Both the position numbers and the translations under genes were made by a program. 64,000 nucleotides of DNA from assembly GCA_963662465.1 (NCBI GenBank), contig OY759599.1:4960001-5024000 (forward strand), given 5' to 3'. Source of the DNA: Desulfatiglandales bacterium. Lineage in GTDB: Bacteria > Desulfobacterota > DSM-4660 > Desulfatiglandales > Desulfatiglandaceae. A model generated the notes under the pieces. The model did not search any database. It was not told the DNA's origin and worked only from the letters and a program-made list of their open reading frames with translations. This document shows positions 15,356-30,687 of this stretch, piece after piece. How positions within the stretch are numbered: the stretch's first letter is position 1; every line of letters starts with the position of its first letter.

Positions 15356-15397
15356 GTCTGATGATGGTTGATTATCTTTTTTAAAGGAGTAAACATA

Positions 15398-17425
15398 ATG
15401 GTATCTTTTCCTTCACTTGCCGTCCAGGGAGACTTCGGAATTCCCGGTTATGTCTTCGCATGGATCATCGCCATTGCGGCCCTTACGGTCTTCGCTTTCA
15501 TTATTCGAACCCGCATCCACCTTCTTCTGGTCAGCCAGAAAGACCCTCGCTTTTCAAACTGGAAAGAGCGCTTCCTGGGCCTGATCGATTACGGGTTCAT
15601 TCAAAAACGCCAACCCCGATACCTGTGGGCGGGCATCATTCACATCATGATATTCTGGGGGTTTATGGTGCTGGGGTTAAGGTCCCTGGACCTGGTAACC
15701 GAAGGTTTGGGAATCCCCATTTTTCGCCCCTTCATGCACAGCCCGTTTGGCGCATTTTACAACTCCATGAAGGACATTTTTGAGTTAATCGTTCTCGTCG
15801 CCTGCATATGGGCCATTCTCAGGCGGGCCATTGTCAAACCCAAGCGATACGAAGGAAGTCACCTCGTTGAAGCTTATCTGGTGCTGGGGCTCATCAGTTT
15901 CCTCATGATCACGGATATGTTCTTTGAAGGAAGCGGGATTCTGCTCACCGGCGGGGCGCGGGGGTGGCTCCCGGCGGCATGGCTCGCGACGCTTTTTCTG
16001 CCGACCAGCCACCCCGGCGCCCTATCCGTGATCCTTTACGTCACCTACTGGCTTCATATCCTGGCCTTCTTTCTTTTCTTGAACCTGCTCCCCCTGTCCA
16101 AACACTTTCACATCATCACAGCCCTTCCCAATGTTTTCTTCAGAAAACTCAAGAAAGGCGAGATCAAGCCCGCCAAATATGGCGTGGATGATATCTTTGA
16201 ACTGGAAAGTCTGGGGGTTGAAAAAATCGAGGATTTTACCTGGAAACATGTTCTCGATCTCTATACCTGTACGGAATGCGGTCGTTGTACGGACAACTGT
16301 CCGGCCAACGCCATTGGAAGGCCCCTTTCCCCCAAATTGCTCACCATCAAGCTCAGGGACCATGCCTATGAAAAATACCCCATTCTGCCCTTCCTTGGGC
16401 AGAGCAAACAGGAAGAGGCCGAAGTTCCCATGGTGGGGGGCGTCATCGGACTGGATGAACTATGGTCCTGCACCACCTGCGGCGCCTGTGAGGAAGAGTG
16501 TCCCGTATTTATCGAATACATCAACAAAATCATCGATATGCGGCGGCATGTGCTGGAGACCTCCCAGAACCCCAGCACGTTCAACCAGATCCTCATGTAT
16601 GTGGAGAAAACGGGCAACCCCTTCGGCAAACCGGCCGTCAAACGGGCCGACTGGGTAAAGGAACAGGAAGTCCCCGATGTAAAAATCCTGAAGGCGGGGG
16701 ACAGCGTGGATATCCTGTACTATGTGGACGGGTACGCGTCCTTCGATCCCCAATCCCAGAAAATCGCCGCCGCCATTTGCAGGGGATTCAATCTTGCGGG
16801 CATGGACTTCGGCATTCTCGGAAAACTGGAAAAGGACACGGGTCACCAGGTGCGGCGCATGGGCGAAGAAGGATTGTTTCAGATGCTGGTGGAGGAAAAC
16901 ACGGAGACCCTTTCAAGCATCGATTTCAAGTGGATTGTTACCACGGACCCGCATGCTTACAACGCGCTTAAAAAAGATTATCCCACAGACTATAAGGTTT
17001 TCCATTATGCACAGTTCTTTTTGTCCCTGGTGGAAACGGGTCATTTACGGCCCAATAAGGGGGTCGATCCCAAGGACCTTTATACCTACCACGATCCTTG
17101 CTACCTGGGCAGACACAGCGGCATTTACGACGAACCCCGGCGACTGCTCACATCCATCCCGGATCTTCGGCTGGTGGAAATGGAACGCAGCCGGGACCGC
17201 AGTTTCTGTTGCGGCGGCGGCGACGTGACGCTGTGGCACGAAGTTGCAGAGGAACAGCGCATGGCGGAAAAAAGGATCCACATGGCCCTTGAAACGGGGG
17301 CCAATGTGATGGTTACAGCCTGCCCGTTCTGTCTCATCCATTTTGAAGACGCCATCAAAACTGCGGGTCTTGAAGATAAAATCAGAGTGGTGGACTTGAT
17401 GGAGCTTTTTATGTCGGCGTTTTAA
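15398..17425 (+). CDS. Membrane heme b/FeS/CCG oxidoreductase (FadF/EMO-like ETF:menaquinone oxidoreductase)
   Basis: TM domain with conserved His; CTECGRC and CTTCGAC; YHDPCYLGR; CCGGG; adjacent to etfBA. Confidence 0.85.
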   Translation: MVSFPSLAVQGDFGIPGYVFAWIIAIAALTVFAFIIRTRIHLLLVSQKDPRFSNWKERFLGLIDYGFIQKRQPRYLWAGIIHIMIFWGFMVLGLRSLDLVTEGLGIPIFRPFMHSPFGAFYNSMKDIFELIVLVACIWAILRRAIVKPKRYEGSHLVEAYLVLGLISFLMITDMFFEGSGILLTGGARGWLPAAWLATLFLPTSHPGALSVILYVTYWLHILAFFLFLNLLPLSKHFHIITALPNVFFRKLKKGEIKPAKYGVDDIFELESLGVEKIEDFTWKHVLDLYTCTECGRCTDNCPANAIGRPLSPKLLTIKLRDHAYEKYPILPFLGQSKQEEAEVPMVGGVIGLDELWSCTTCGACEEECPVFIEYINKIIDMRRHVLETSQNPSTFNQILMYVEKTGNPFGKPAVKRADWVKEQEVPDVKILKAGDSVDILYYVDGYASFDPQSQKIAAAICRGFNLAGMDFGILGKLEKDTGHQVRRMGEEGLFQMLVEENTETLSSIDFKWIVTTDPHAYNALKKDYPTDYKVFHYAQFFLSLVETGHLRPNKGVDPKDLYTYHDPCYLGRHSGIYDEPRRLLTSIPDLRLVEMERSRDRSFCCGGGDVTLWHEVAEEQRMAEKRIHMALETGANVMVTACPFCLIHFEDAIKTAGLEDKIRVVDLMELFMSAF

Positions 17426-17468
17426 CCTTATCATTCATTCCGGCTTGTCCGGGCTAGGAGGTAAACAC

Positions 17469-18248
17469 ATGAACATTATTGTTTGCGTTAAACGGGTTCC
17501 CCTTACCCAAGAGGTGGATCTGGAAATTGACAGTACCCGAAAAGGGATTAAAAAAGACGCACTGGCCTACGTCATCAACGATTGGGACAACTATGCCATT
17601 GAAGCGGCGGTGCAGCTTCAGGAAGCCCTGGGCGGAGAAGTGACCGCCGTTGCCATCGGAGACGAAGAGGATGAAGAGGTGCTGCGAAGGGCACTGGCCA
17701 TGGGGGCGGACCGGGCCATTAGAATTGACCCGGGGGACCTTATCCCGGATGGTGATCTCAACGCGAAAATTCTGGCCAAAGCCATTTCCGACCTGGACTA
17801 CGACCTGATTTTTACCCGGGTTCAGTCGGAAGACGACAACACGGGGATGGTGGGGATCATGCTGGCGGAGCAGTTGGGCCTGGCCCATGCGGCCATTGCC
17901 AACGGCATTGAACCGGAAGACGGAACCGTCAAGGTTCGGGTGGAGCTGGAAGGGGGCATCGATGAAGTTTCCCGGATCCAGTTGCCGGCCCTCTTAACCG
18001 TTCAGACCGGCATCAACGAACCCCGGTATGTGTCCATCATGGGCATTCGAAAGGCCAAAAAGAAAGAATTGAAGGTGGTTTCCTTAAACGATCTGGGTTT
18101 TTCAACCGATGACTTGACACCGCAAACCCTCATCGAAGAGGTTTTTCTGCCCCCTGAAACCGAGGGCGCTGAAATGCTCGAAGGGGATTCCGCCACGGTG
18201 GCTGAAGCCATTATCCGCATTATGGGAGAAAAGGGGGTGACGATCTAA
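17469..18248 (+). CDS. etfB: Electron transfer flavoprotein beta subunit
   Basis: MNIIVCVKRVP, ALAMGAD, NEPRY. Confidence 0.95.
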   Translation: MNIIVCVKRVPLTQEVDLEIDSTRKGIKKDALAYVINDWDNYAIEAAVQLQEALGGEVTAVAIGDEEDEEVLRRALAMGADRAIRIDPGDLIPDGDLNAKILAKAISDLDYDLIFTRVQSEDDNTGMVGIMLAEQLGLAHAAIANGIEPEDGTVKVRVELEGGIDEVSRIQLPALLTVQTGINEPRYVSIMGIRKAKKKELKVVSLNDLGFSTDDLTPQTLIEEVFLPPETEGAEMLEGDSATVAEAIIRIMGEKGVTI

Positions 18249-19220
18249 ATGGGCGATATATTCGTGATTGCAGAACACCGAAACGGGGAACTCCGGGACA
18301 TTACCTTTGAAATGCTGAAAAAAGCGGATGCGCTGGCCCAGGCCATGTCCTGCAACGTAACGGCTGTATTATTGGGGGGACCGAGCGAGGCCTTTGCGGA
18401 TGATCTGGCAAAATGGGCCGACCGGGTACTGGTCTTTGAAGATGAAAGACTGAAAACCTACAATTCAGACCTCTACGTCGGTATTTTGGCGGCAACGGTG
18501 CAGACGCAGCAACCCTTTCTTACCCTCATGGGACACACCTCCTGGGGCATGGATTATGCCCCTGCTCTGGCGGTGAAGACCGGTTATCCTCTGAGTACGG
18601 ATGCCTCCGACATTCTTTTGGAAGAAGGACGTCCCCAGGTGATTCGCCAGATGTACAGCGGTAAATTGTTTTCGAGGATTTCCTTTAAACCATCCCCGGG
18701 TTATCTGGTAACCGTAAGACCGGGGGCCTTCAAGGCGGAACCCGCGGGCGACAAAGAGGGCGAAGTGGTTCGGGAGGCCCTTCCGGAGGGTCTTCCAAGT
18801 CCTCGCCGGGAATTTCTGGAGTTTGAAGACACGGCTGCCGGCGATGTGGACATTACCCAGGCTGACCTGCTGGTATCGGTGGGTCGGGGGGTCGGTGAAG
18901 CGGATAACATCGCTGCGGTGCAGGAACTGGCCGACATCCTGGGCGGGACCCTTTCCTGTTCCAGACCGGTGGTGGACAAAAACTGGCTTCCCAAGTTTCA
19001 CCAGGTGGGCACTTCCGGCAAAAGCGTTAAACCCAAAGTCTATCTGGCCCTGGGGATCAGCGGCGCTTTTCAACACGTGGCGGGCATCACGGGCGCCGAC
19101 TGTGTGATCGCCGTCAACAAGGACAAAAAGGCCCCCATCTTCAGGGTAGCGGATTACGGCATTGCCGATGATCTGTTTAATGTGGTGAACGCTCTGAAAG
19201 AAAAAGCCAAGAGCGCATAA
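18249..19220 (+). CDS. etfA: Electron transfer flavoprotein alpha subunit
   Basis: QVGTSGK, GISGAFQHVAG, NKDKKAPIF. Confidence 0.95.
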   Translation: MGDIFVIAEHRNGELRDITFEMLKKADALAQAMSCNVTAVLLGGPSEAFADDLAKWADRVLVFEDERLKTYNSDLYVGILAATVQTQQPFLTLMGHTSWGMDYAPALAVKTGYPLSTDASDILLEEGRPQVIRQMYSGKLFSRISFKPSPGYLVTVRPGAFKAEPAGDKEGEVVREALPEGLPSPRREFLEFEDTAAGDVDITQADLLVSVGRGVGEADNIAAVQELADILGGTLSCSRPVVDKNWLPKFHQVGTSGKSVKPKVYLALGISGAFQHVAGITGADCVIAVNKDKKAPIFRVADYGIADDLFNVVNALKEKAKSA

Positions 19221-19230
19221 GCAAGCCGTA

Positions 19231-19297
19231 GTTTTAAGTTTTTCTCTCAATGAATTCCTTGTTTTTTGTGACTGGTTTTTGGGAAACAAGGCATTAA
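19231..19297 (+). repeat. Dispersed 67-bp intergenic repeat, copy 1
   Basis: 57/67 identical by hand alignment to the reverse complement of 50247-50313. Confidence 0.8.
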
Positions 19298-19399
19298 AAC
19301 ATCAACCGTCGCCTGGAACGGATATGTGGTGCGAATCCGTTTCAGGCGCGAATATTATATTATTCCATCCCCGATGAAATCGGTTTCAGGAGGAGACCC

Positions 19400-20542
19400 A
19401 TGGATTTTGGTTTAAATAAAGAACAACAGGATATTGTGGCCGCTGCAAAGGAGTTTGCACGGGGGGAATTTCCGGATCGGGCACAGGAATTCGACCGGAA
19501 CGAAACATTTGACCAGGATCTGTGGCGCAAAGCATGCGAATTGGGTTTTGTGGGCGTCTTCATTCCCGAAGAATACGAAGGGGCCGGTTACGGGTTTCTG
19601 GAACATTGCCTGATTACCGAAGAATTCTGGGCGGCGGATCCGGGCATCGGGCAGGCCGTTCTGTCATGCACCTTCGGCGCCGAACTGCTGATACTGTTTG
19701 GAACCGAGGCCCAAAAACAGGAGGTGCTGCCGAAACTGGTGGCGGGAGAGGCGGTGCTGGCCACAGCCATCACCGAACCCGATGCGGGCAGTGATCCGAC
19801 CGGCGCTGTAACCTCGGCGGTCAAGGATGGCGACAACTGGGTCATTAACGGCAACAAGATGTTTGCCACCAACGGTGATCTGGCTGACTATATGATGACC
19901 TTCTGCCTGACGGATCCCGAAAACCCTTCCCGGCACCGTCGGCACAGTTTTATCCTTATTCCCACCCAAACCAAGGGGTATGAATCCAACAAGCTGCACG
20001 GTAAAATGGGTATCCGGGCCTCCGATACGGCGGAATTGAGCCTGAGCGACCTTCGGGTTCCTCTTGAAAACCTGGTGGGAAAAGAAGGGGAAGGGTTCCA
20101 TGAACTCATGGCCTTTTTTAACCGAACCCGGCTTCACATCTGCGCGCAGGGGGTAGGCCTGGCCAGGGCCGCTCTTGAAGAAGCCGTTCGTCATACCAAG
20201 GAAAGGCGCCAGTTCGGTGCGCCCCTGGCCTCCTTTCAAAATACCCAGTTCAAGCTGGCTGAGATGGCCACCTGGACCAAAGCCGCCAGGAACCTCTATT
20301 ATGAAGCCGCCTGGCAGATGGACCACGGAAAAATAGACCATGCGCTCATCGCCATGGCCAAATGGTATTCCGCTGAAAATGCCGTCCGTTGCGCGGACAT
20401 GGCCCTTCAGATGTATGGGGGGTACGGCTATATTGACGAATACAAAGTTCAGCGGCTTTATCGGGATGCCAAAATCCTGGAGATTTACGAAGGAACCAAA
20501 GAGATGGAAAAAACCATTATTGCCGGGACCCTGGTGGGGTAA
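19400..20542 (+). CDS. Acyl-CoA dehydrogenase
   Basis: ITEPDAGSD, QMYGGYG, EIYEGTKE. Confidence 0.95.
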   Translation: MDFGLNKEQQDIVAAAKEFARGEFPDRAQEFDRNETFDQDLWRKACELGFVGVFIPEEYEGAGYGFLEHCLITEEFWAADPGIGQAVLSCTFGAELLILFGTEAQKQEVLPKLVAGEAVLATAITEPDAGSDPTGAVTSAVKDGDNWVINGNKMFATNGDLADYMMTFCLTDPENPSRHRRHSFILIPTQTKGYESNKLHGKMGIRASDTAELSLSDLRVPLENLVGKEGEGFHELMAFFNRTRLHICAQGVGLARAALEEAVRHTKERRQFGAPLASFQNTQFKLAEMATWTKAARNLYYEAAWQMDHGKIDHALIAMAKWYSAENAVRCADMALQMYGGYGYIDEYKVQRLYRDAKILEIYEGTKEMEKTIIAGTLVG

Positions 20543-20913
20543 GGGGCAACTCTTTTTGGAGCCTTACCCCCGCAGCCGTTCACAGAGTGCAGGGGCTACG
20601 ATCGCAAGCCGGGACAAAATGTTTGAACACGATTTGAAAGATTAAATGATGACCAGAATTGCCATTGGCCGATGAAACGCAAACAAAAGGATGTAAAGGG
20701 GTTTGAAGGAACTTGTCCTGACGTCGGATTCTAATCCAGTTCATCGCAACCGTCAACCGGGCAGCGGGCCTGCAAAGCTCTCGACGTAAAACTCACGGCT
20801 GAAGCCGTACATGGGTAGGGTTTTTGCTTGACGGCGGGGTGTTTGTACGGGGATTTTGGCCGGTACATTCTCATCAAACACAAAAGCAGGTTGTACAAAC
20901 GCACGCAGCTGCT

Positions 20914-20939
20914 GTAGAGACAAGGCATGCCTTGTCTCT
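20914..20939. repeat. GTAG-type REP palindrome
   Basis: GTAGAGACAAGGCATGCCTTGTCTCT; second copy at 36646-36670. Confidence 0.75.
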
Positions 20940-21267
20940 GGGGGGAGTTTCATGCTTGGAAACGAAATACATGGGAACAAAAGTGTAAACTCGAAAATGA
21001 TGAAATCCATTCACAGTGATCTCTGGGCCTTGAAAATATATGCTATAAGTTCAGGTAGTTATATTTACGCCCCCAAATTCGTTATAATCAGAAATTATTC
21101 AAGTTTTTTAATAGCTTAACTACCTAAAAAGCCATCAAGGCGTCGTTTTTGAGTAAATAGCAAAAAGGACAAAGATTTTTATTAAGCAGTTTTTTTGGCG
21201 CACAATAAACATAAAACTGTACAAATTAAACCCAGTACACAAAACAGCTTTGGAAAGATAGCAAAAA

Positions 21268-22806
21268 TCAGGAGTTTTCCGGATCAAAATCGAGCGGGCT
21301 TCTAATCTCTTTTGCCGGCATGCTTTTGATGACATGCGTATAGATCATCGTTGTCCGAACATCGCTATGCCCCAAGAGGTCTTGGATCGTTCGGATGTCG
21401 TAGTTGGCCTGCAACAGATGGGTCGCAAAACTGTGGCGAAAAGTATGCGCGGTAACGCGTTTATACAGTTTTGCCTTTCGTACGGCATCCCTGATGGCGC
21501 GTTGCACATGACTTTCATGGATATGATATCTTTTTTTTTCTCCCGTGTCCCTAACGGTGGTAAGGGAAAGGCCGGGGAAAACCCATTGCCAAGCCAATTC
21601 TTTGGCCGCATTTTTATATTTTTTATCCAACCGCCCCTTTAAGAAGGCGCCGGCGTACCCGACATTCAAATCCTTTTCATGCAAATCGGCGGCCACATCG
21701 AATTGCATACGGATTTCCGGTATGACCGTTTCCGGCAAAGGGACGGAGCGGTCTTTTTTTCCTTTACCGTCATGTACGGTCAGCATACAACCCTCGAGGT
21801 CGAAATCAGCAAGGCGAAGGTTGAGACATTCAAACAATCGTAATCCACAACCGTAGAGCAATTTCACGATGAGGTCATACGGATGGGAAAGATGCGTCAA
21901 AACCAGATCAATTTCCCGCCTCGACAACACCACCGGCCTATACGGTTTCTGCTTTGCTCTGACAACGTTCTTTATGTCGCCAGGTTCCCGTTTCATAACA
22001 TGACGGAAAAAAAACAACAAGGCATTGAATGCTTGATTCTGAGTTGAAGCGGAGACCTTTCTTTTCACAGCCAGAAATGTCAAAAAGGCTTTGTAATCTT
22101 CGTCGGTGACCGCTGCCAACGTTTTGGATTTGGTGAAGACCTGAAACTTGCGGAGCCACATTGAATAGCTCTTCAATGTCTTGGGAGAGTACTGCAGAAC
22201 CATGATTTCATCACGGAGGCCATCAAAGGCGAATTTCCAGCTTGTGCCGATTTCAACCGGTTGATCTGATGTTTGCCGTTTATTGCAAATAGTTTTGTCA
22301 AAAAACCCAGAAGGTTTTCGATCCGCCTCTTGACAGGTAGTTTTCGATATCTCCTCTGCGAATTTTTGGTCCCCGAAACCCTGACAACCCGTCCGGGAGG
22401 GCGGGACGTCCACAGGCCCGGCTTGAACGGCATTTGAACGTTTCGCGGCGGACGCGGCAAAAACAGTTGTATCGTTATCTGGAAAGATCTCGGCCTTTTT
22501 GACGGACGTATTCTTTCGAATTGTCACATATTCGGCAACCGAGGGCCTTTCTTTGACGGTTTCATAATACAAAGAAACGGCATCCGAGGCTTGTCTGATT
22601 TGATAATCTTTCTGTTTTTTCTGATGGCGTTTTTCGATAAAATGACTGAGGCTTTCATGTTTTGAGACCGGATGATAATATTTTTGGCAAAAATCCCAGT
22701 AAAATCGAAGCCATTTTTTGTAATATGCCTGAAATCGCTTTTAAACGGGTTTCCTATCCAGAAAATGCTGAAAACGCGCTATGATGTCTGGCGGAACTGG
22801 AATCAT
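21268..22806 (-). pseudogene. intI: Long-form integron integrase with an in-frame TAA at codon 22; a TTG-started 434-aa product remains possible
   Basis: LYGCGLR, GKGKKDR, integron-specific insertion KKYKNAAKELAWQWVFP, HTFRHSFATHLL, LGHSDVRTTMIYTH. The upstream frame reads MIPVPP...RKPV*KRFQAYYKKWLRFYWDFC in frame after a GGAGG RBS. Confidence 0.85.
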
Positions 22807-22950
22807 GATATGCCCTCCTATTGGATGTTCAATATTACAAATACGCACAATATACGGAACGCATACGCCATGCCATTTATCTTTGTCAATAATAATTTCA
22901 TGCCGGCTTTTAACCGGCAAATCATAATGAGCCTCAGAGAAAAAGCCGGA

Positions 22951-23172
22951 AATTAGCAATTCTCATTTTGGAATTACGATCTCCTCATCCTGCTTTACAC
23001 GCCCTATGTTGGAACCCGCTTCTGGACGATCTGCGTCCTAAATCATGAATATCCCCAATTTAAACAAGTGTTTTTCGAGTTTGCCGCAGGACGCGGAGCG
23101 TCCCAAAACTATTCCCACATTAGAACGTATGAACGAGAGCGAAAGCCACATCTCTAATGAGAATTGCTAATT
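22951..23172. mobile_element. MITE/REPIN-like element of about 220 bp
   Basis: Perfect 17-bp terminal IR AATTAGCAATTCTCATT; internal inverted GGACGC(A/G)GA(T/G)CGTCC hairpins at 23024-23038 and 23089-23103. Confidence 0.65.
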
Positions 23173-23264
23173 AAATATTTTACAGAGAATAAAAACATTG
23201 CCCTTGCATTTTTCCATCGAATAATTTACAGAATATAGATTCCAGGGGGAGATTGGTTCGATTT

Positions 23265-23326
23265 TGTCGGATAACATGCAGAAACGGATATTTGATGACA
23301 AAAAAAACCGTATAATCACTGGTTCG
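23265..23326 (+). other. Putative integron attI site (core GTT at 23322)
   Basis: Lies between divergent intI and the first cassette; CGTATAATCACTG-GTT. Confidence 0.55.
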
Positions 23327-23943
23327 TTGCGACACGAAGTCGCTTTAAATATATGTTTTCACAGAAGAATCGTGGAAACCCGGTGTTCCGCCACCGGCAT
23401 CCTAGGGAGGCATGCTGCCGTTGCGCTGATGACGGGGTGTGAAGCCCTCCCGACAATGTACCGAGGACCTTTGAAGTTGGAAAGTCGGGACAGAAAGCGT
23501 GAGTGGACTGTTCCTCTGGAAGCCTCATCCGGATTAGGGCTGGGATTGACTGATATGGTCAGTATATTCAAACACCTGCAGTATCGTAAACAGCAACAAG
23601 CCAAAGAGGCCGATAGGCTTGGACCAAACGGTGTGCGGCCAGGTCGGGAGTCTCGAACGTACGCCCGGCGCGGATGTTGTGCCGCCGGTATAGGGGGTGG
23701 ACCTAAGTCAGTTAACAGTATTTATTGCGGAACGTGGTAAGCTCGTAACATCGCCATAAAGTTTTGTGGCAAGCCAACCGTGAGGCAGGCCGTTGGTGTT
23801 GCGGGTGCAAGACGCCTTACCAAGCCAATGCCCTCCTGTAATGGGTGGAATACCGAGTTATCTCCGGCCCGAAAGGGAGCTGAATTTTGGCGGGTGCTCA
23901 TGCGTGAGATAATTTGAAGAACCTTCTGATGGGAGAATAGCAA

Positions 23944-24065
23944 ATGACGGTCTTCGTGACTGGTGCACTTCCACAACAAGCTCCAAACTGGCAACTCATT
24001 AATTGGGATGTCGTCAAGAGTAACGTGAAAAAGGCTTCAAATGCGTATTGCGCAGGCGGTTAACA
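23944..24065 (+). pseudogene. N-terminal remnant of the intron reverse transcriptase
   Basis: MTVFVTGALPQQAPNWQLINWDVVKSNVK, frameshift, then RLQMRIAQAV, joined almost directly to domain V. Confidence 0.75.
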
Positions 24066-24178
24066 ACCGCCGGACTCTTCTGATGAGAAAGGGTCTTACT
24101 GAGGGCTTGAGCCGTATGCTGGGAAACTCGCGTCTACGGTTCTGAGGGTAATAGCGGCATAATACACACCTCCGTACG

Positions 24179-26272
24179 TTATTGAAAATTAAAGACTTGT
24201 TGTTTTGAGTTTCTTGAAAGCGGGCTCTTTGGAAGCCCGGAATGAGCTGCCTTTTTTATCACTTCAGATTCAAGGTCCTTTTTTGAAATGATCCATGGAG
24301 CACCGGAACATACTCGCTTGGCGGGTAGAATCTCATGTTGTATAAGTCTCCAAACTTTGGTGCTGCCAATACCCAGCCTTTCGCTTGCTTCAGCTACCGT
24401 ATATTCTTCTCGTCGCTGCCTCTCTCCTTCATGATATACAGGGATATTATGCCTATTTCGAAATGAACGCAACCTTACCGGATTCCAGGTATATCCCTTT
24501 GTAGTCTTTGTACCCACACGGTTGAGAAAGGCCACGATGTGTTTATCAGGCATAATTCTAGCCAAATCGGATATTATCTTTTTTGTATCAACATCGGTTT
24601 TCAATGGGTAACTGGAAGACTTATTCTTCAATACCTCCAATTCCGTATGCTCACCCCCTTCCCAGTGAATGATTAATTTGATCTTTTGATCTTCCAAATA
24701 AACAACGATCTCTTTGATAACCGTCCGGATTATACGCTTCTTTAAATCCAAAGAGCAAAACGGATCATTCCATACACGAGGTAAATCTTTTGATAGATCT
24801 CTGATCTCAGTCTCCTCCTCAGGGGAAAGCGAAGGGGTGTTCGATCCCATGGCGTCAACCTCATTCTCCAATCTTGCTACCTTAACAAGAGCGTCATTCC
24901 AATCCTTCTCCAATGTAGATGCTACCAAACGATTATCAGGGTCTACTGCATTGTATTGACGTTTTGCCCGTAAAGCTTCATAACGCGCTTGTTCCAACTC
25001 CAGTTCCCGTTGCCGTTTCACTGAATCCGATTCATGGTTGATTTTCTTTATCGCCTCTAAAGAAGCTTCTAATCCTATCGGTGATAATACTTTCAAAAGA
25101 AAATCCGTAACAGCCCGGTCAACACGAAATCCACCAAATGATATACACGCCTTTCCTGTCTCGGTACCTCGTTTGCGGCTACACTCATAACGTTTATGAG
25201 TTCCATTACGGCCTTGGTATCGTACAATTAACTTTCTGCCGCAATGACCGCATCTTAACAAACCTCCAAGCAATGCCTTTCCTCCGCGAACAGATCCTCT
25301 CACCACCGGCCTTTTCTTATTTGTATTTTGAGTTAGTATCTCCATGTTATACTGGTACTCTTCCCATGTGATGTAACCTTCATGGTGATCCAATATTAAA
25401 ACGTCCCAATCCTTTTGTTCCTTACGAATACCCTTCCTCAGTCGCTTGCGCCCATTTTCAAAAGTTACCTCTGTTTTAGTCCGGCCATAGACGTAGGCGC
25501 CGGCGTAAATTGGGTTGTTCACTATATGCGACAAGGTATGAGCAGACGGTAGTTTCCACTCTATCCTACGTTCCCCTTTACCGCTGGAAACAACAGCAAT
25601 CTCAATCTGTTCATCTAAAAACCAATGATACACCCGACGAAGAGTACCATATTCCTTGAATTTCGTGAATACCAAATCAATGACTTCTTGAATTCGTTTG
25701 TCAGGATTCTTTTTCAGCTTATTATCCCTAGTCTTTATATAGGCTGCCGGTACAGTAAGATATAATTCTCCCCGCTTCGCTTTTTGTTGTATTGCCGCCT
25801 GAGAACGCTCCTTTAATAGGCTCAATTCCATTGCACTCATTTCTCCCTTTAAGCCCAGGAGCAAACGATCATTTGACACGTTTAGGTCATAAACAGCTCC
25901 TTGATCTACAAGAACCGTTTTTTTAAGTGCACAGATCTCAAGCAACGTATGCCACTCTCGACCGTTGCGGGCCAACCTCGATGATTCAATCGAGAAAATA
26001 CCCCCTATTCTTCCTTCACACACAGATGAAAGAAGATTCTGGAATCCTTTTCTGTCAACGCATCCCGATGCAGTTATTCCCAAATCACTATCTATCATCC
26101 ATATGTTTTTCTCGTTCCATCCTAATTCTTTTGCCCTTTCTACCAAGCCATATTGTAAAAGTTGGCTTTCACGATGCTGTAGAACTTGGCCCGGTGTTGA
26201 CTGACGGATATATATACATGCTTCCCGACTAATATGTTCAGCATTGATTTTATTGCTCATGCTCATTTCCAC
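24179..26272 (-). CDS. Large serine recombinase (resolvase, recombinase, Zn-ribbon and C-terminal HTH domains)
   Basis: YIRQS catalytic Ser, SRLARN, NPIYAGAY, LRCGHCG, VDPDNRLVA. Confidence 0.93.
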   Translation of the reverse strand: MEMSMSNKINAEHISREACIYIRQSTPGQVLQHRESQLLQYGLVERAKELGWNEKNIWMIDSDLGITASGCVDRKGFQNLLSSVCEGRIGGIFSIESSRLARNGREWHTLLEICALKKTVLVDQGAVYDLNVSNDRLLLGLKGEMSAMELSLLKERSQAAIQQKAKRGELYLTVPAAYIKTRDNKLKKNPDKRIQEVIDLVFTKFKEYGTLRRVYHWFLDEQIEIAVVSSGKGERRIEWKLPSAHTLSHIVNNPIYAGAYVYGRTKTEVTFENGRKRLRKGIRKEQKDWDVLILDHHEGYITWEEYQYNMEILTQNTNKKRPVVRGSVRGGKALLGGLLRCGHCGRKLIVRYQGRNGTHKRYECSRKRGTETGKACISFGGFRVDRAVTDFLLKVLSPIGLEASLEAIKKINHESDSVKRQRELELEQARYEALRAKRQYNAVDPDNRLVASTLEKDWNDALVKVARLENEVDAMGSNTPSLSPEEETEIRDLSKDLPRVWNDPFCSLDLKKRIIRTVIKEIVVYLEDQKIKLIIHWEGGEHTELEVLKNKSSSYPLKTDVDTKKIISDLARIMPDKHIVAFLNRVGTKTTKGYTWNPVRLRSFRNRHNIPVYHEGERQRREEYTVAEASERLGIGSTKVWRLIQHEILPAKRVCSGAPWIISKKDLESEVIKKAAHSGLPKSPLSRNSKQQVFNFQ

Positions 26273-26283
26273 CTTTCTTTTCT

Positions 26284-26841
26284 CGAAATGTCAACCGAAA
26301 ATTGACCTCTTGCGACAACCGAATTTTGACCCCCATATGAGTAATTGTAAGCTGCGACGAGGTCATAGAAGGCTCCGGTGGCTCCTGCCGAAATATCCAT
26401 TAAAAGAGCGACCATAACCGCACCTTAGTCAGCTTCCGACCAGATAATCATCTGGTAAGTCGAGAAAACCCTTTTTCGTCGCTAATTCGAGTTCAATCAA
26501 ATACCCTATCTCGCCTTTCATTTTGATCTGTGAAACCATCCACTTCCGTAACCGAATCGTGACGGGGATACGCCTCAGATGTTCAGGACTCCTTTTTCGA
26601 CCAGCGCCTTTTCGACTCCCACCTCTCATTTTCATCGCTCCTTTTCACCTTCAAATTCGTCCAATATTTTTGAATACCGTGTACGTTTTTCAGTTAAACA
26701 CCTATTTCTATCGGAAAATAAGCTATTTATGATTTATCGTTACGATTTTTCTGAGTCGGATTAAGCTGCTTGCTTCAACAACTCCAGTCTCTTGACTGCT
26801 TCCAATATCAGACCGCGATTTTACGTTAGTGAAACTACTTC
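26284..26841. mobile_element. 558-bp secondary insertion with an IS21-like end
   Basis: Flanked by TCTTTTCT direct repeats (26276-83, 26842-49); tandem CAACCGAA(A/T)(A/T)TTGACC repeats at the left end. Confidence 0.5.
26429..26635 (-). CDS. Small basic putative DNA-binding protein
   Basis: RGGSRKGAGRK motif followed by RHH-like VTIRL; RBS AAGGAG. Confidence 0.6.
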   Translation of the reverse strand: MKMRGGSRKGAGRKRSPEHLRRIPVTIRLRKWMVSQIKMKGEIGYLIELELATKKGFLDLPDDYLVGS

Positions 26842-26996
26842 TCTTTTCTATTTCTGTTACCCTCAGAATTTTGCCAGAAACCTGACAGAAGCTCTGCAAG
26901 GAAATCAATCAATCTATTTCGTGTTTCTATTGGAATTTCGATCGGTGATGGTAAATAATCCCAAAGCCGAAGTTGATGATATTTTTGTTTCGTCAT
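26835..26996 (-). CDS. Small hypothetical protein of the LSR element
   Basis: MTKQKYHQLRLWDYLP...; RBS GGAGG; lies between the DUF5372-like gene and the LSR. Confidence 0.5.
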   Translation of the reverse strand: MTKQKYHQLRLWDYLPSPIEIPIETRNRLIDFLAELLSGFWQNSEGNRNRKEK

Positions 26997-27304
26997 CTTT
27001 CCTCCTTGTTTTCGAATTGACTTCATCAGGAGGAAACGGTATTTTTCTATTCACTATTAAGCAATATAAATTCTTAAGCGCCCTGATTTCGATAGCGGGT
27101 TTTGAGCCGAGGGATATCTTTTCATACTTTGGATTGGTCATCCACGCAGGTATCAATTCATGGCGACCATCAGGTTTCTTTGTTACAAAACAAGTTTCTC
27201 CACGATGGTTTCTGGTACCTACCACATAAATTTCTTCACCGGTTCTTGGGTGAAAGGGGTAATATACCCGAGTTATAAACTGGTTTTGATGGGCATTATA
27301 TAGT
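26914..27304 (-). CDS. DUF5372-like protein of the LSR element (start uncertain, frame crosses the element end)
   Basis: YPFHPRTG...DGRHELIPAWMT motif. Confidence 0.65.
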
Positions 27305-27370
27305 GGTTCTGAGGGGGCTTGGGGATGGCAACATCCCCTGGCTACCCGGCTTTTCTCAATCAAAAACGGC

Positions 27371-27400
27371 TTGTCTCAAAGCCACCGTCTCAGGTATAAT
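27371..27400 (+). promoter_or_regulatory. Cassette-borne sigma70 promoter for the TA pair
   Basis: TTGTCT-18 bp-TATAAT. Confidence 0.6.
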
Positions 27401-27441
27401 GAGGGGGTGTTCTTTTACAAATAACTTTGGATGATTAATCG

Positions 27442-27732
27442 ATGAGTATTCAATTTGAATGGGACAAAAATAAAGCGAAAACGAATCTCAAGAAACACAA
27501 AGTTAGTTTTGATGAAGCAAGTACTGTTTTCAGTGACCCATTAGCTTTGATATTTGATGATGAAGAACACTCTACGTCAGAAGAGTTACGTGAAATCATC
27601 ATCGGAAATTCTGAGAAAAGACGACTGTTATTGACCAGTTTCACAGAACGACTAGAAGATATTGTGCGGATAATTAGCTCACGTTTAGCGACAAACCATG
27701 AACGAAAGGATTATGAAGAAAATGCCTACTAA
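27442..27732 (+). CDS. brnT: BrnT family toxin (integron cassette)
   Basis: FEWDKNKAKTNLKKHKVSFDEA...RIISSRLATNHER. Confidence 0.92.
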   Translation: MSIQFEWDKNKAKTNLKKHKVSFDEASTVFSDPLALIFDDEEHSTSEELREIIIGNSEKRRLLLTSFTERLEDIVRIISSRLATNHERKDYEENAY

Positions 27733-27985
27733 TTCAGCAATTGACGATTTAAAACCAGAATATAAGTTTGATTATAGTAAAGCACGTCCGAATCGTTTTG
27801 CTAAACGAGTCACTGAGGATAGTGTTATTGTGGTGCTTGACCCTGATGTAGCACAGGTTTTTACTTCTGCGGAGGCAGTCAATGCTGTTTTACGAGCGCT
27901 CATTCAAAACATGCCTAATGTTACTATTCCAGCACAAGTTACAGAGGTTCTCACGGCAAACAAACATCATGGTTCAATCCGCTAA
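27713..27985 (+). CDS. BrnA-like antitoxin
   Basis: LKPEYKFDYSKARPNRFA, VVLDPDVAQVF; overlaps the toxin; stop codon lies within attC R''. Confidence 0.8.
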   Translation: MKKMPTNSAIDDLKPEYKFDYSKARPNRFAKRVTEDSVIVVLDPDVAQVFTSAEAVNAVLRALIQNMPNVTIPAQVTEVLTANKHHGSIR

Positions 27986-28673
27986 CCAAGCGCTCCTCGC
28001 GCCGAGGTAAGCCCGAAACCTTGGGAACCCGCGTAAATCGGGATGAAATTGGTTATTGTTATCCAGTGGGTGATCGCGGAAAGCGAAAGTCCCACCCGAG
28101 CAGAGGTTAGCCACCAGCTCGGTAGTGAAGTCCACGTGCAAACCGGGTAACCGGCGTACGGAGCTGGACGGAACGAGAATCCAGGCTGCGTATTGAGCCC
28201 CGAAAAATGTATAGTTGTGGTCATTGGATAACCCTGTGAAATCAGGGGAACGCCGACGCTTTGGAGCAAGCGGAAGACAGCAGACCTTGATGCGCCATGG
28301 CGAGTGTTGAGGTTGCCACCGGGGTCTTAGACCAGGGCATGGATTCAAATGGATAGCTCGGGAACTCGGGAGAACCAAAAGTTTCCTTGTTTAGAGACCC
28401 GGAAGATGAGGGGCGCCGGGAGATTAAGAGCCCTGGCGTTTGCGGGCTGCTTTCACCTGCAAATGAGTCGCAAGAAACACAAAGAAAGAAAGCAGGCAGG
28501 GTATCAGGTGTGGACAGCGAAAAGCGAACGTGCCTGAGAGGGACTTTTGGTAGTCTTAGCGGAACATAGTACCGATGGCGCCGAGGATGGTGCTGGGAAG
28601 GTGGGGAAGTGGCGCCCAAGCGACCCACTGTAGGGAAGGTGAAGCAGGGTATAACGTTTTTCTGATAGGAACT

Positions 28674-30374
28674 ATGGAAGACACTCAGAGGTCACAACCC
28701 ATATCAATGGAAAATCAGGAAATTGCGGAGCAGGTTGCCCAGAAGTCCGAAGAACCGAGTACACATGGTCTCCCCGTACTGGTCAGTGAATCAAGTCTTG
28801 CCCGGGTAGCAATACGGGGGATGGCCGATTCGCAAACGGTGTTCTCATCACTTGCGCATTGGACCGACTTTGATTTATTGAAAAAGTCATTCAAGGCATT
28901 GAGTAAGAATGAGTCAACCGGAGTTGATAGGATAACGGCGAAGGACTATGCTGTCGATCTTAATGAAAACCTCTATAAACTGTACGAACGGCTGCAAAGA
29001 GGGCAGTACGTTGCATCTCCGGTCAAGCGCATATGGGTGGACAAGGAAGGCGGTAAAAAGAGACCGATAGGGATTCCGGCGTTGGAGGACAAGATTGTCC
29101 AGAAAGCGGTGGCGACTTTGCTGGGGCTGGCTTACGAACCCTTGTTTTATGAAGTTTCCCATGGATTTCGGGAAGGTCACAGTCAACACCTGGCGCTGAA
29201 AGAACTTCGTGAAAAGTGTGCCGGTTTGAACATAAACTGGATTTTGAGCGCGGATATTACGGGACTATTTGACAATATAGATCACTCATTATTACGAGAA
29301 ATACTGCGTAAAAGGGTGAATGATGGCGGCATCCTGCGGCTAATCGGCAAGTGGTTGAACGCCGGGGTCGTGGAGGGTGACGAAACCATATACCCTGAGA
29401 AAGGAACGCCTCAAGGCGGGTTATGCAAAGCTTTGCATAACCCGCCTTATGCCAAGTTGCCGATTATGCAAAGTAAACCGCTAAAGCTACCAGATTTCCA
29501 ACACCTTCACTGAGTTTACTTTGCATAATATCACGGGTATCTCAAACTTGAAATCCAATTAAACGATGCAGCATCCTTGGTTTATTTTGGATAAAATGAT
29601 CTGGTTTTTTTCCGACAAATGATTTTGTGAGCTTTTCGCTCAGTCATCATTAGCAAAGATTATGCTAAGTAAATCAAAAAGAAACCCTTGAATTCCAATG
29701 CGTTTTATGGCTTACTTTGCATAATTACTTTCTTTGCATAAGGCGGCGTCATTTCACCGGTGCTGAGTAATATATTTTTGCACGAGGTGCTGGACGGCTG
29801 GTTTGTCAAAGAAGTTGAACCGAGGCTGAAGGGGAAGTGTTTTTTGGTCCGCTTTGCGGATGATTTCATAATCGGGTTTCAATTGAAGTCTGATGCTGAA
29901 CGGTTGATGGCAGTTTTGCCCAAGCGTTTTGAGAAATACAAGCTAAGCCTTCACCCGGGAAAGACCAGATTGATAGCCTTTGGAAGGCCAATGGCCGGTG
30001 CAAAGCGTGAGACCTTTGATTTCTTAGGTTTTACCTACTACTGGGGCAGGTCCTTAAAGGGGCGGTGGGTGATTAAGAAGAAGACGGCTGGTAAGCGTTT
30101 AAGGCGTTTTCTGAGTATGACGTGGAGTTGGTGTAAGGAGAGCCGCCATGATCCCATGAAGGAGCAGCATGAGATTTTATGCAGCAAACTTCGGGGGTTC
30201 TATCAATATTTTGGTGTACGCTCGAACTACAAAGCACTTGAAGTGGCGTATGAATACGCGATGAAGGCCTGGCGTTACTGGCTAAGCCGGAGGAGTTCCG
30301 ACGGCCTGGTGTTGTTTGCAGACCTGCAAAGGAGCCACCCACTGCCAATTCCGAAAATAGTCCACGGATTCTGA
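28674..30374 (+). pseudogene. ltrA: Group II intron reverse transcriptase/maturase disrupted at PQGG
   Basis: RPIGIPALEDK, SHGFR, GTPQGG|VISPVLSN, RFADD, FDFLGF. Removing 29420-29746 restores a 457-aa ORF with no endonuclease domain. Confidence 0.92.
29420..29746. mobile_element. Gene-less 327-bp element with TTATGC/GCATAA arms (RIT-like miniature element)
   Basis: Symmetric TTATGC (29447, 29464, 29660) and GCATAA (29523, 29719, 29736) sites; 36-bp perfect palindrome 29413-29448; AAGGCGG at both junctions. Confidence 0.8.
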
Positions 30375-30687
30375 AACCACTGGGGCAGCAAAGTTATTCG
30401 CCGGTCGGGGTGTCGCCTGGCTGGTTGATGGTCTGGTAAAAAGGACCTGAACCGAGAAACCGGATGAGGGAAATCTTCACGTCCGAATCTGCGGGGGGAG
30501 CGCCGGGCAACCGGTGCTTCTACCCGGAACCAGACGCCTGATACTTGGGCGGTCCTAGCGAGGGGGGCCGGAGGAGGCGCTGGTGAGCTTGTCGTTCCTA
30601 TAATGCACATCCTTTCGCTTGACTCCTTTGGAGATTTTTTCTAATCTCATGCTACAATCTACGCTTTTGCAAGGGGGGAATCGGATC

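Follow-up and report, generated by a model that had tools for sequence, protein, structure and literature searches.

Group II introns specialised on attC, the recombination site of integron cassettes, have been described as group IIC-attC introns (S.ma.I2 and relatives), which belong to class C and insert into the bottom strand at the R'' box, facing against the cassettes (PMC3001079, PMC7923331; here and below, papers are cited for the parts of their text available to us). Here we describe an integron locus in a 64,000-nucleotide stretch of the genome of a Desulfatiglandales bacterium (GenBank GCA_963662465.1, contig OY759599.1, positions 4,960,001 to 5,024,000; hereafter the window) that holds one group II intron at attI, the site beside the integrase gene (intron 1), and another within its attC (intron 2). 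Unlike the IIC-attC introns, both lie on the top strand, are not of class C and have other targets, the R' box for intron 1 and the L'' box for intron 2. Each carries a further mobile element: a large-serine-recombinase element between domains V and VI of intron 1, and a gene-less RIT (recombinase in trio) mini-element in the reverse transcriptase (RT) gene of intron 2. We consider it likely that the locus is a decaying chromosomal integron on which four site-specific parasites are stacked, each targeting a conserved sequence of the layer below.

Intron 1 resembles UHB.I2, an IIB1/CL1 intron from a soda-lake metagenome (Sonbol and Siam 2021, PMC7923331) that also starts with UUGCG directly behind an attC, lies in cassette orientation and sits near toxin-antitoxin cassettes. 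UHB.I2 is a single case for which no match between attC and the exon-binding sites (EBS) is worked out in the available text, whereas the window's genome contains 27 copies of the intron 1 kind, including a member whose open reading frame (ORF) is deleted and copies at attI. Class E fragments in a cassette array (H.ha.F1 and F2; PMC7923331) have 5' ends and a target position that are undefined in that account, and one published class C intron is inserted into the top strand inside attC at a position that may overlap the L'' position. Table S1 of PMC3552965 includes an intron of class D within a cassette of a Vibrio integron, so introns outside class C are already on record in arrays. RNA-guided targeting of a fixed attC position, as proposed here, is also known from the IS1111-attC elements ISKpn4 and ISPst6, which are DNA transposons with a seekRNA and not retroelements (PMC11187229). 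Described RIT elements, of about 3.4-3.5 kb with three tyrosine recombinases, inverted repeats and a palindrome at one end, likewise insert in genes of other mobile elements (PMC3414803, PMC8138268); the mini-element differs in being gene-less, and its family in targeting the PQGG codons of RT genes, as against the transposase and radC genes named for RITs in those texts. Site-specific large serine recombinases share with ours the resolvase, recombinase and zinc-ribbon domains and a conserved site (Durrant 2023, PMC10083194), but the target in the window is a non-coding ribozyme junction, and the main text of that paper mentions neither group II introns nor DUF5372. In a literature search we found neither introns in L'' nor a serine recombinase at the domain V/VI junction nor RITs in RT genes described, although the supplements of PMC7923331 and PMC10083194 may bear on targets; the L''-splitting habit of the intron 2 lineage appears undescribed.

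Coordinates are window positions, the window being C1:4960001-5024000 of a one-contig genome of 8.16 Mb (G000; C1 is its contig, other G labels denote genomes and L labels sequence loci). With 55 matches to one attC family, 10 attI-like sites of a single consensus and 49 matches to a profile of domains V and VI, this genome provided sister copies for comparing every part of the locus. The generic attC detector, which gives 0.34 hits per kb in random DNA, was applied only alongside family sites; the names of the attC boxes and the rule for placing the crossover are taken from PMC7923331 and general usage. All parts listed in a preliminary description of this DNA (intI, a miniature inverted-repeat transposable element or MITE, attI, intron 1, the recombinase element and its insert, BrnT, attC, intron 2 and the mini-element) are present (Table 1).

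Intron 2 and the L'' box of attC

Removal of 27997-30528 restored an attC that matched positions 2-82 of the genome's own attC profile with E=3e-25; the profile was built from the other attC sites of the genome, with the window's site outside the training set. The bottom strand of the rebuilt site folds with a bulged G and a bulged T as extrahelical bases, and the intron cut lies on the top strand after the fifth L'' base, at most one base from the first of these. Every intron-2-type 5' end in the genome (6/6) lies at the same point of an attC half, as does one 3' remnant. The fold of domains V and VI of intron 2 gave z=-3.6, while the d3 hairpin folds were not significant on their own.

The 5' region of intron 2 was matched in 34 of 209 genomes of the order. 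Among 32 distinct 5' exons (30 loci, two dropped for lack of flank and four added), 24 have an R''-like AAC ending 9-11 nt upstream of the insertion; control windows gave 0-2/32 in five cases and 7/32 in the sixth, which covers an AAC-containing spacer of the family. EBS1 and its intron-binding site (IBS1) form 62 of the 70 possible pairs across 14 distinct combinations; shuffling gave 40.2 +/- 3.5, and 0 of 20000 shuffles reached 62. The test ignores kinship, and related sequences inflate its statistic. The EBS2 bulge of the lineage ends in GTT in 10 of 14 cases. Two complete relatives also rebuild an attC: L075 (G128; 2197 nt, with an open RT) and L282, on a plasmid of Desulfosarcina sp. BuS5.

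The position could instead be incidental, if the intron paired with any five-base match and attC were merely abundant intergenic DNA. Several observations count in this direction and against specificity for L''. Downstream exons passed a strict attC test in 6 of 23 cases (background 3.3%), two of them weak and only four clearly complete, and a looser test in 11 of 23 against a background of 22%; EBS1 is short; and the basal relatives L083 and L084 (about 63% RT identity) insert in another repeat, a short repeated intergenic element that is not attC. The fold energy of the rebuilt attC alone is also unexceptional (29 of 200 shuffles fold equally well), and no spliced or rejoined attC occurs in the contigs of four sequencing runs, a kind of data that does not bear on expression. 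Given the weak 3' exons and the target of L083 and L084, homing to L'' is best described as frequent but not exclusive. The distance to AAC nevertheless stays fixed in those 24 exons while the L'' letters and EBS1 change together, and all six copies in the genome share one attC position, which makes an incidental position improbable.

A tree of 16 RTs placed the intron 2 clade (100/98) as sister to a class D reference (84/79) and apart from the g1, g2/F and g3/F references; this tree contains no class E or CL reference, which tells against a firm class assignment, and omits L282, whose ORF was not extracted. As classes D and E are reported as sisters (PMC3552965), the placement makes intron 2 a likely class E intron, by elimination. 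Its clade is also separate from the RT of class C type in the genome, labelled by its domains V and VI and its terminator-type dispersal and not by a named reference. The endonuclease domain is absent, an intact relative of intron 2 (457 aa) having RT and maturase only. Intron 1 possesses an EBS2, and both introns lie on the plus strand with the cassette, which sets them apart from the group IIC-attC introns. An intact RT of the intron 2 type was found nowhere in the genome, and a phylum sample of 401 genomes contained no further match at E<=1e-120; intron 2 itself would be dead, its RT gene being split.

One cassette family of the genome (C1:4892303, 2278964, 277784, 3302095 and 7892174) has a body resembling the initial 70 bases of intron 2, with an attC behind it. 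Small cassettes of the C1:4892303 type are possibly derived from the intron.

Table 1. Features of the integron locus by window position, with the evidence for each
Feature	Position	Strand	Evidence or remark
intI, integron integrase, long N-terminal type	21268-22806	-	TIGR02249 371.6 bits, cut-off 265
MITE-like element, 222 bp, 17-bp inverted ends	22951-23172	.	in all six sister platforms
attI	23292-23328	+	consensus common to 10 sites; R box 23322-23328
Intron 1, group II, IIB/CL-like, starts TTGCG	23327-27350	+	RF02012 93.8 bits; ends from aligned copies
Large-serine-recombinase element, 3167 bp, at domain V/VI junction of intron 1	24149-27315	-	PF00239, PF07508, PF13408
Recombinase ORF, open, 697 aa	24179-26272	.	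in 3167-bp element
558-bp insert within recombinase element	26284-26841	.	8-bp direct repeats; IS21-type right end, small ORF
63-aa ORF	26835-27026	.	in 3167-bp element
Promoter-like site of cassette	27371-27400	+	10/12 consensus matches; lead only
BrnT-family toxin gene, type II toxin-antitoxin	27442-27732	+	PF04365 86.8 bits, E=1e-24
Putative antitoxin ORF overlapping brnT	27698-27985	+	context only
attC, 5' part: R'' box, 5-nt spacer, first five L'' bases	27981-27996	+	family comparison
Intron 2, group II, starts TCGCG, ends GGA	27997-30528	+	RF02005 99.7 bits
RT gene of intron 2, split by mini-element	28674-30374	+	TIGR04416 on both halves
Gene-less RIT element, 321 bp, terminal palindrome	29421-29741	.	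in PQGG codons of intron 2 RT gene
attC, 3' part: rest of L'', stem, L', spacer, R' (GTT 30594-30596)	30529-30600	+	profile match from model position 18

Intron 1, attI and the recombinase element

The attI site adjoins intI, from which it diverges, and has a core (23292-23324) that ends in CTGGTT. Its crossover would fall between 23322 (G) and 23323 (TT), and intron 1 starts four bases 3' of that point. An intron at this place had been expected to block the site, but the 7-bp R box reads GTTCGTT both with and without the intron, leaving attI intact. Intron 1 is a putative CL1/IIB1 intron by its UUGCG start, its position (as in UHB.I2) and its similarity of about 65% to RT-bearing copies; its ORF is deleted, and the RT tree contains no CL reference. 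Only short remnants of its protein gene remain, and the recombinase element displaces its domain VI by 3.2 kb; with no ORF and a displaced domain, intron 1 would be dead.

Of its 27 copies in the genome, 20 lie behind attC, four behind attI and three behind another intron, and attC and attI sites across the genome carry an intron at this spot past the crossover in about half of cases. EBS1 loops of this kind can base-pair with R' (GCGAAC with GTTCGC, for instance), and EBS2 (ACAAGC) with the spacer between L' and R'. EBS2, which is missing from one copy, pairs at 4-6 of 6 bases at all 19 attC sites for which it was located, but at only 2 of 6 at all four attI sites, which indicates a lineage adapted to attC. 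Both EBS1 and EBS2 thus pair with the 5' exon at attC, and at the window's attI only EBS1 does so. An alternative seven-base EBS1 for intron 1, whose junction would be out of register by two bases, was rejected on comparison with the loop positions of sister types.

How intron 1 came to attI can be read in two ways, and we lean slightly towards a passenger that arrived on the 5' end of a cassette rather than an insertion guided by EBS1 only. A stronger version of the alternative holds that the intron homed directly to attI and that the whole locus grew by simple successive insertion without recombination. EBS1 pairs with the attI end at 5 of 6 bases in the correct register, an intron-type start stands behind 5 of 10 attI sites, a rate like that at attC, and three copies behind other introns pair EBS2 at only 2-3 of 6 bases, so EBS2 is not always needed; for IIE/IIF introns, too, splicing in vitro is reported not to require EBS2 (PMC3753933). 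IBS2, however, is missing at 4/4 attI sites and present at 19/19 attC sites. Direct insertion at attI would by itself be compatible with a stack of site-specific parasites; the doubtful part is the absence of recombination, given that domain VI and the downstream R'' are foreign to the intron 1 type, and the account as a whole seems to us rather unlikely.

Comparison of sister copies suggests that intron 1 is probably chimeric, with its 5' part and its domain VI derived from different introns and the join running across the recombinase element. The sister at C1:3306435 (98.5%) has a different domain VI and self-consistent flanks, where the R' sequence GTTCG+C corresponds to GCGAAC, the R'' that comes next; the window's 3' exon, by contrast, begins with T, and R'' (GCTAAC) predicts GTTAGC, the target of another intron type. 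The seven copies of the recombinase element in the genome are mosaics that share blocks in incompatible patterns. The intron at C1:2364285 is clearly chimeric and has no recombinase element: it is of CL type, its domain VI is of class E type, and its boxes do not match. What weighs against the argument from the boxes is that R' and R'' also mismatch elsewhere without a recombinase element, only 20 of 40 such neighbouring pairs of sites matching, in part because attC sites of other families went undetected; the match rises to 8 of 10 among neighbouring pairs less than 2 kb apart. At the ten attI-consensus sites, R' is identical to the R'' of the next attC in two cases. Exchanged domains VI without the element were seen at C1:2364285-2366564, 3353258-3354082 and 3348955-3351517, two of them with mismatched R' and R''.

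The 3167-bp element, which also holds a DUF5372-like ORF, is flanked on either side by a copy of an 11-bp sequence located where domain V ends. Its seven copies in the genome are 99% identical, with domain VI following in 7/7 and domain V preceding in 6/7, and it looks active, or recently so. Among four relatives with 71-82% identity (L001-L004), the ends of L002 and L003 match the domain V/VI profile, and those of L001 and L004 are alike by eye. Of seventeen more distant recombinase loci of the order, three lie within RT genes of introns, and two lie in or next to genes for tyrosine recombinases; the distant relatives (33-36%) in group II RT or tyrosine recombinase genes are L010, L011 and L025 together with L012 and L016. 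The 558-bp insert, which resembles the end of an IS21 insertion sequence of the genome, is present in 7/7 copies of the element and absent from L001-L004; judged by this distribution, it is inherited with the element and did not insert at this locus.

The mini-element, the cassette and the integrase platform

With its 6-bp repeat the mini-element measures 327 bp, and an empty form of the RT gene in contigs of two other sequencing runs skips 327 bases. In the genome it occurs eight times, always in the PQGG codons of an RT gene, and three intron types are represented. It has terminal inverted repeats and a one-sided palindrome but not the three tyrosine recombinase genes. Its end pattern occurs in at least 127 metagenome stretches; 75 loci were examined, giving 71 distinct ends with at least 30 flanking bases, of which 46 match RT motifs, 23 lack such motifs and two show the palindrome only. 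Several of these metagenome loci are full three-recombinase elements, and a gene-less element whose ends elsewhere flank a recombinase trio is accordingly a non-autonomous RIT. No close autonomous partner was found in the genome, the best matches having 24-41% identity and different ends, and the end pattern was seen in one of 209 genomes of the order, the window's own. The body of the mini-element occurs in both orientations relative to the palindrome (C1:3346638 and 3350322 versus 292779), which suggests inversion between an internal site and the far junction. Relatives of intron 2 carry other insertions: a different element with a 551-aa serine recombinase in the PQGG codons (L076:4530-6760, in G133), and full RIT elements of other families within domain V (L076:7470 onward, L081:4490 onward, and L298/L305).

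The integron itself is supported by the intI family match, the rebuilt attC and the attI consensus, as the preliminary description had proposed, and on these sequence comparisons attI and attC both appear genuine. The core ORF of intI runs from 21268 to 22572 on the minus strand and the gene start lies at 22806; codon 22 (22741-22743) is TAA in the assembled sequence, where four sister copies have Gln. Catalytic motifs were located and the catalytic core is intact, while 18 of 23 family relatives possess the N-terminal domain that the Q22 stop removes. Three GTG/TTG codons between this stop and the core make a downstream restart possible. The intI of G134 (L239) has a stop in the same N-terminal domain, at a different codon.

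All six platforms of the window's type in the genome are damaged by a stop, insertion, deletion or truncation, and none has an intact intI. Three intact integrase genes of another type (41-42% identity) lie elsewhere in the genome with other attI sites. Upstream of these (C1:3288640, 4425411 and 6792683) the first cassette is a transposase unit directly after GTT, an arrangement also found behind several attC sites. By its motifs, the unit behind the attI sites of the intact integrases is probably IS91-like.

The 222-bp MITE-like element is present in 6/6 platforms, with three stand-alone relatives besides, and is unmatched in the platform of G134. Inverted repeats and dispersed copies were found, without a clear target duplication or a partner transposase. 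From its occurrence it is an old insertion inherited with the platform type, which did not insert here. Since the MITE recurs in all sister platforms and the 558-bp insert in all copies of the recombinase element, the six insertions first counted at this locus reduce to four.

The only cassette was first described as a BrnTA pair. The BrnT toxin is borne out by its PF04365 match; the partner ORF has no Pfam match up to E=5 and only unnamed atlas matches, and its homologues immediately follow brnT homologues elsewhere, at three places in the genome and in L079. Scans for promoters and terminators, of which one gave the promoter-like site in Table 1, found no more sites than in shuffled sequence.

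The block lies at a synteny break. To its left (15368-20542) are an Fe-S oxidoreductase-like ORF, two further ORFs, presumably electron-transfer flavoprotein-like by their motifs, and an acyl-CoA dehydrogenase gene. Between that gene and intI (20592-21004) lie several families of dispersed repeats, of about 155 bp and 183 bp and including a short palindrome, each with many genomic copies; tandem units of about 200 bp at C1:1480220-1482486 are related to the 155-bp repeat at 20620-20746. A comparison of the locus between the dehydrogenase and yyaL-like genes in related genomes, as proposed at the outset, yielded no empty site. In the two closest relatives, G134 (90%) and G135 (80%), the yyaL-like gene follows a pilin cluster and not the acyl-CoA dehydrogenase gene, and similarity to the yyaL-like region begins about 10 bases past the GTT of attC. 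The dehydrogenase gene stood beside yyaL in none of the relatives compared, a set that did not include the loci downstream of the dehydrogenase gene.

Origin of the stack and its meaning

From the positions, the pairings and their recurrence across copies and genomes we infer the reverse splicing, the order of events, the recombination event and the losses of function in the following scheme. An IIB/CL-like lineage would reverse-splice into the top strand 2-4 bases past the GTT of attC, by EBS1 and EBS2 pairing, and would then ride the 5' end of the next cassette with the site unharmed, reaching attI when IntI moves that cassette or by an EBS1-only insertion. A class-E-like lineage would reverse-splice into the top strand of L'', about 10 bases past the AAC of R'', with EBS1 reading the first five L'' bases and the GUU of EBS2 probably reading AAC; this insertion would split the attC hairpin and lock the cassette. 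The serine-recombinase element would integrate between intron domains V and VI, and the RIT mini-element would enter the RT gene at its PQGG codons. Copies of the recombinase element, or of the introns, may then have recombined so that attI and the 5' part of one intron were joined to domain VI and the BrnT cassette of another, which would yield the one-cassette array.

A wider proposal, which we offer tentatively and think may well not hold in full, is that the class-E-type lineage reads attC directly, with a fixed GUU against AAC and a retargetable EBS1 against L'', and so locks cassettes, that the CL-type lineage rides harmlessly, and that the recombinase element at the domain V/VI junction makes introns portable recombination points. 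Swapping of domain VI and cassettes at these points would be a second, IntI-independent way of rearranging arrays.

The array was at first thought to be frozen by both introns together with the nonsense codon in intI. That holds for the BrnT cassette, frozen by an attC split by 2.5 kb inside L'', where excision by IntI would be impossible while the split lasts, as the rebuilt site supports; it also holds for the integrase side, given the Q22 stop and the lack of an intact cognate copy. The intron at attI has no part in it. One could suppose that the insertions and the stop were kept because freezing the array around a toxin-antitoxin cassette benefits the host: attC is split and intI truncated, the sole cassette encodes a toxin-antitoxin pair and has a promoter-like site of its own, and such cassettes are reported to stabilise arrays (PMC8876359). 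The same insertions, however, occur genome-wide at equivalent sites irrespective of cassette, the six platforms of the window's type are each broken differently, the intron at attI leaves the boxes unchanged, and the block contains nothing else worth protecting. Selection for such a lock therefore strikes us as quite improbable, and the nesting is better attributed to the target specificity of each layer. A stabilising effect of the toxin-antitoxin pair on the block is plausible by analogy.

The pile-up might also be an assembly artefact of near-identical repeats. The recombinase element, the introns and attC are multi-copy and up to 99% identical, no contig spans the whole stretch, and no contig shown bridges the pairing of the left and right flanks of the recombinase element, 3.2 kb apart. 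One contig of run X1 does bridge 27290-28025 without differences, and others cover 30228-30537 and 24138-24758, although X1 may be the source of the assembly and hence not independent. Overall, we give an artefact very little credence.

The locus is a real, unusually dense yet explicable stack. It points to a third route by which group II introns use integrons, on the top strand, within L'' and destroying the site, beside the known bottom-strand IIC-attC introns and the barely described R' route, and the intact members L075 and L282 are suited to a direct test of homing. At this single locus two recombinase families have landed on ribozyme and RT motifs, a source of natural attB/attP pairs and of RIT junctions that can be read. 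Because an attC split inside L'' is invisible to integron finders, arrays in such genomes would be undercounted.

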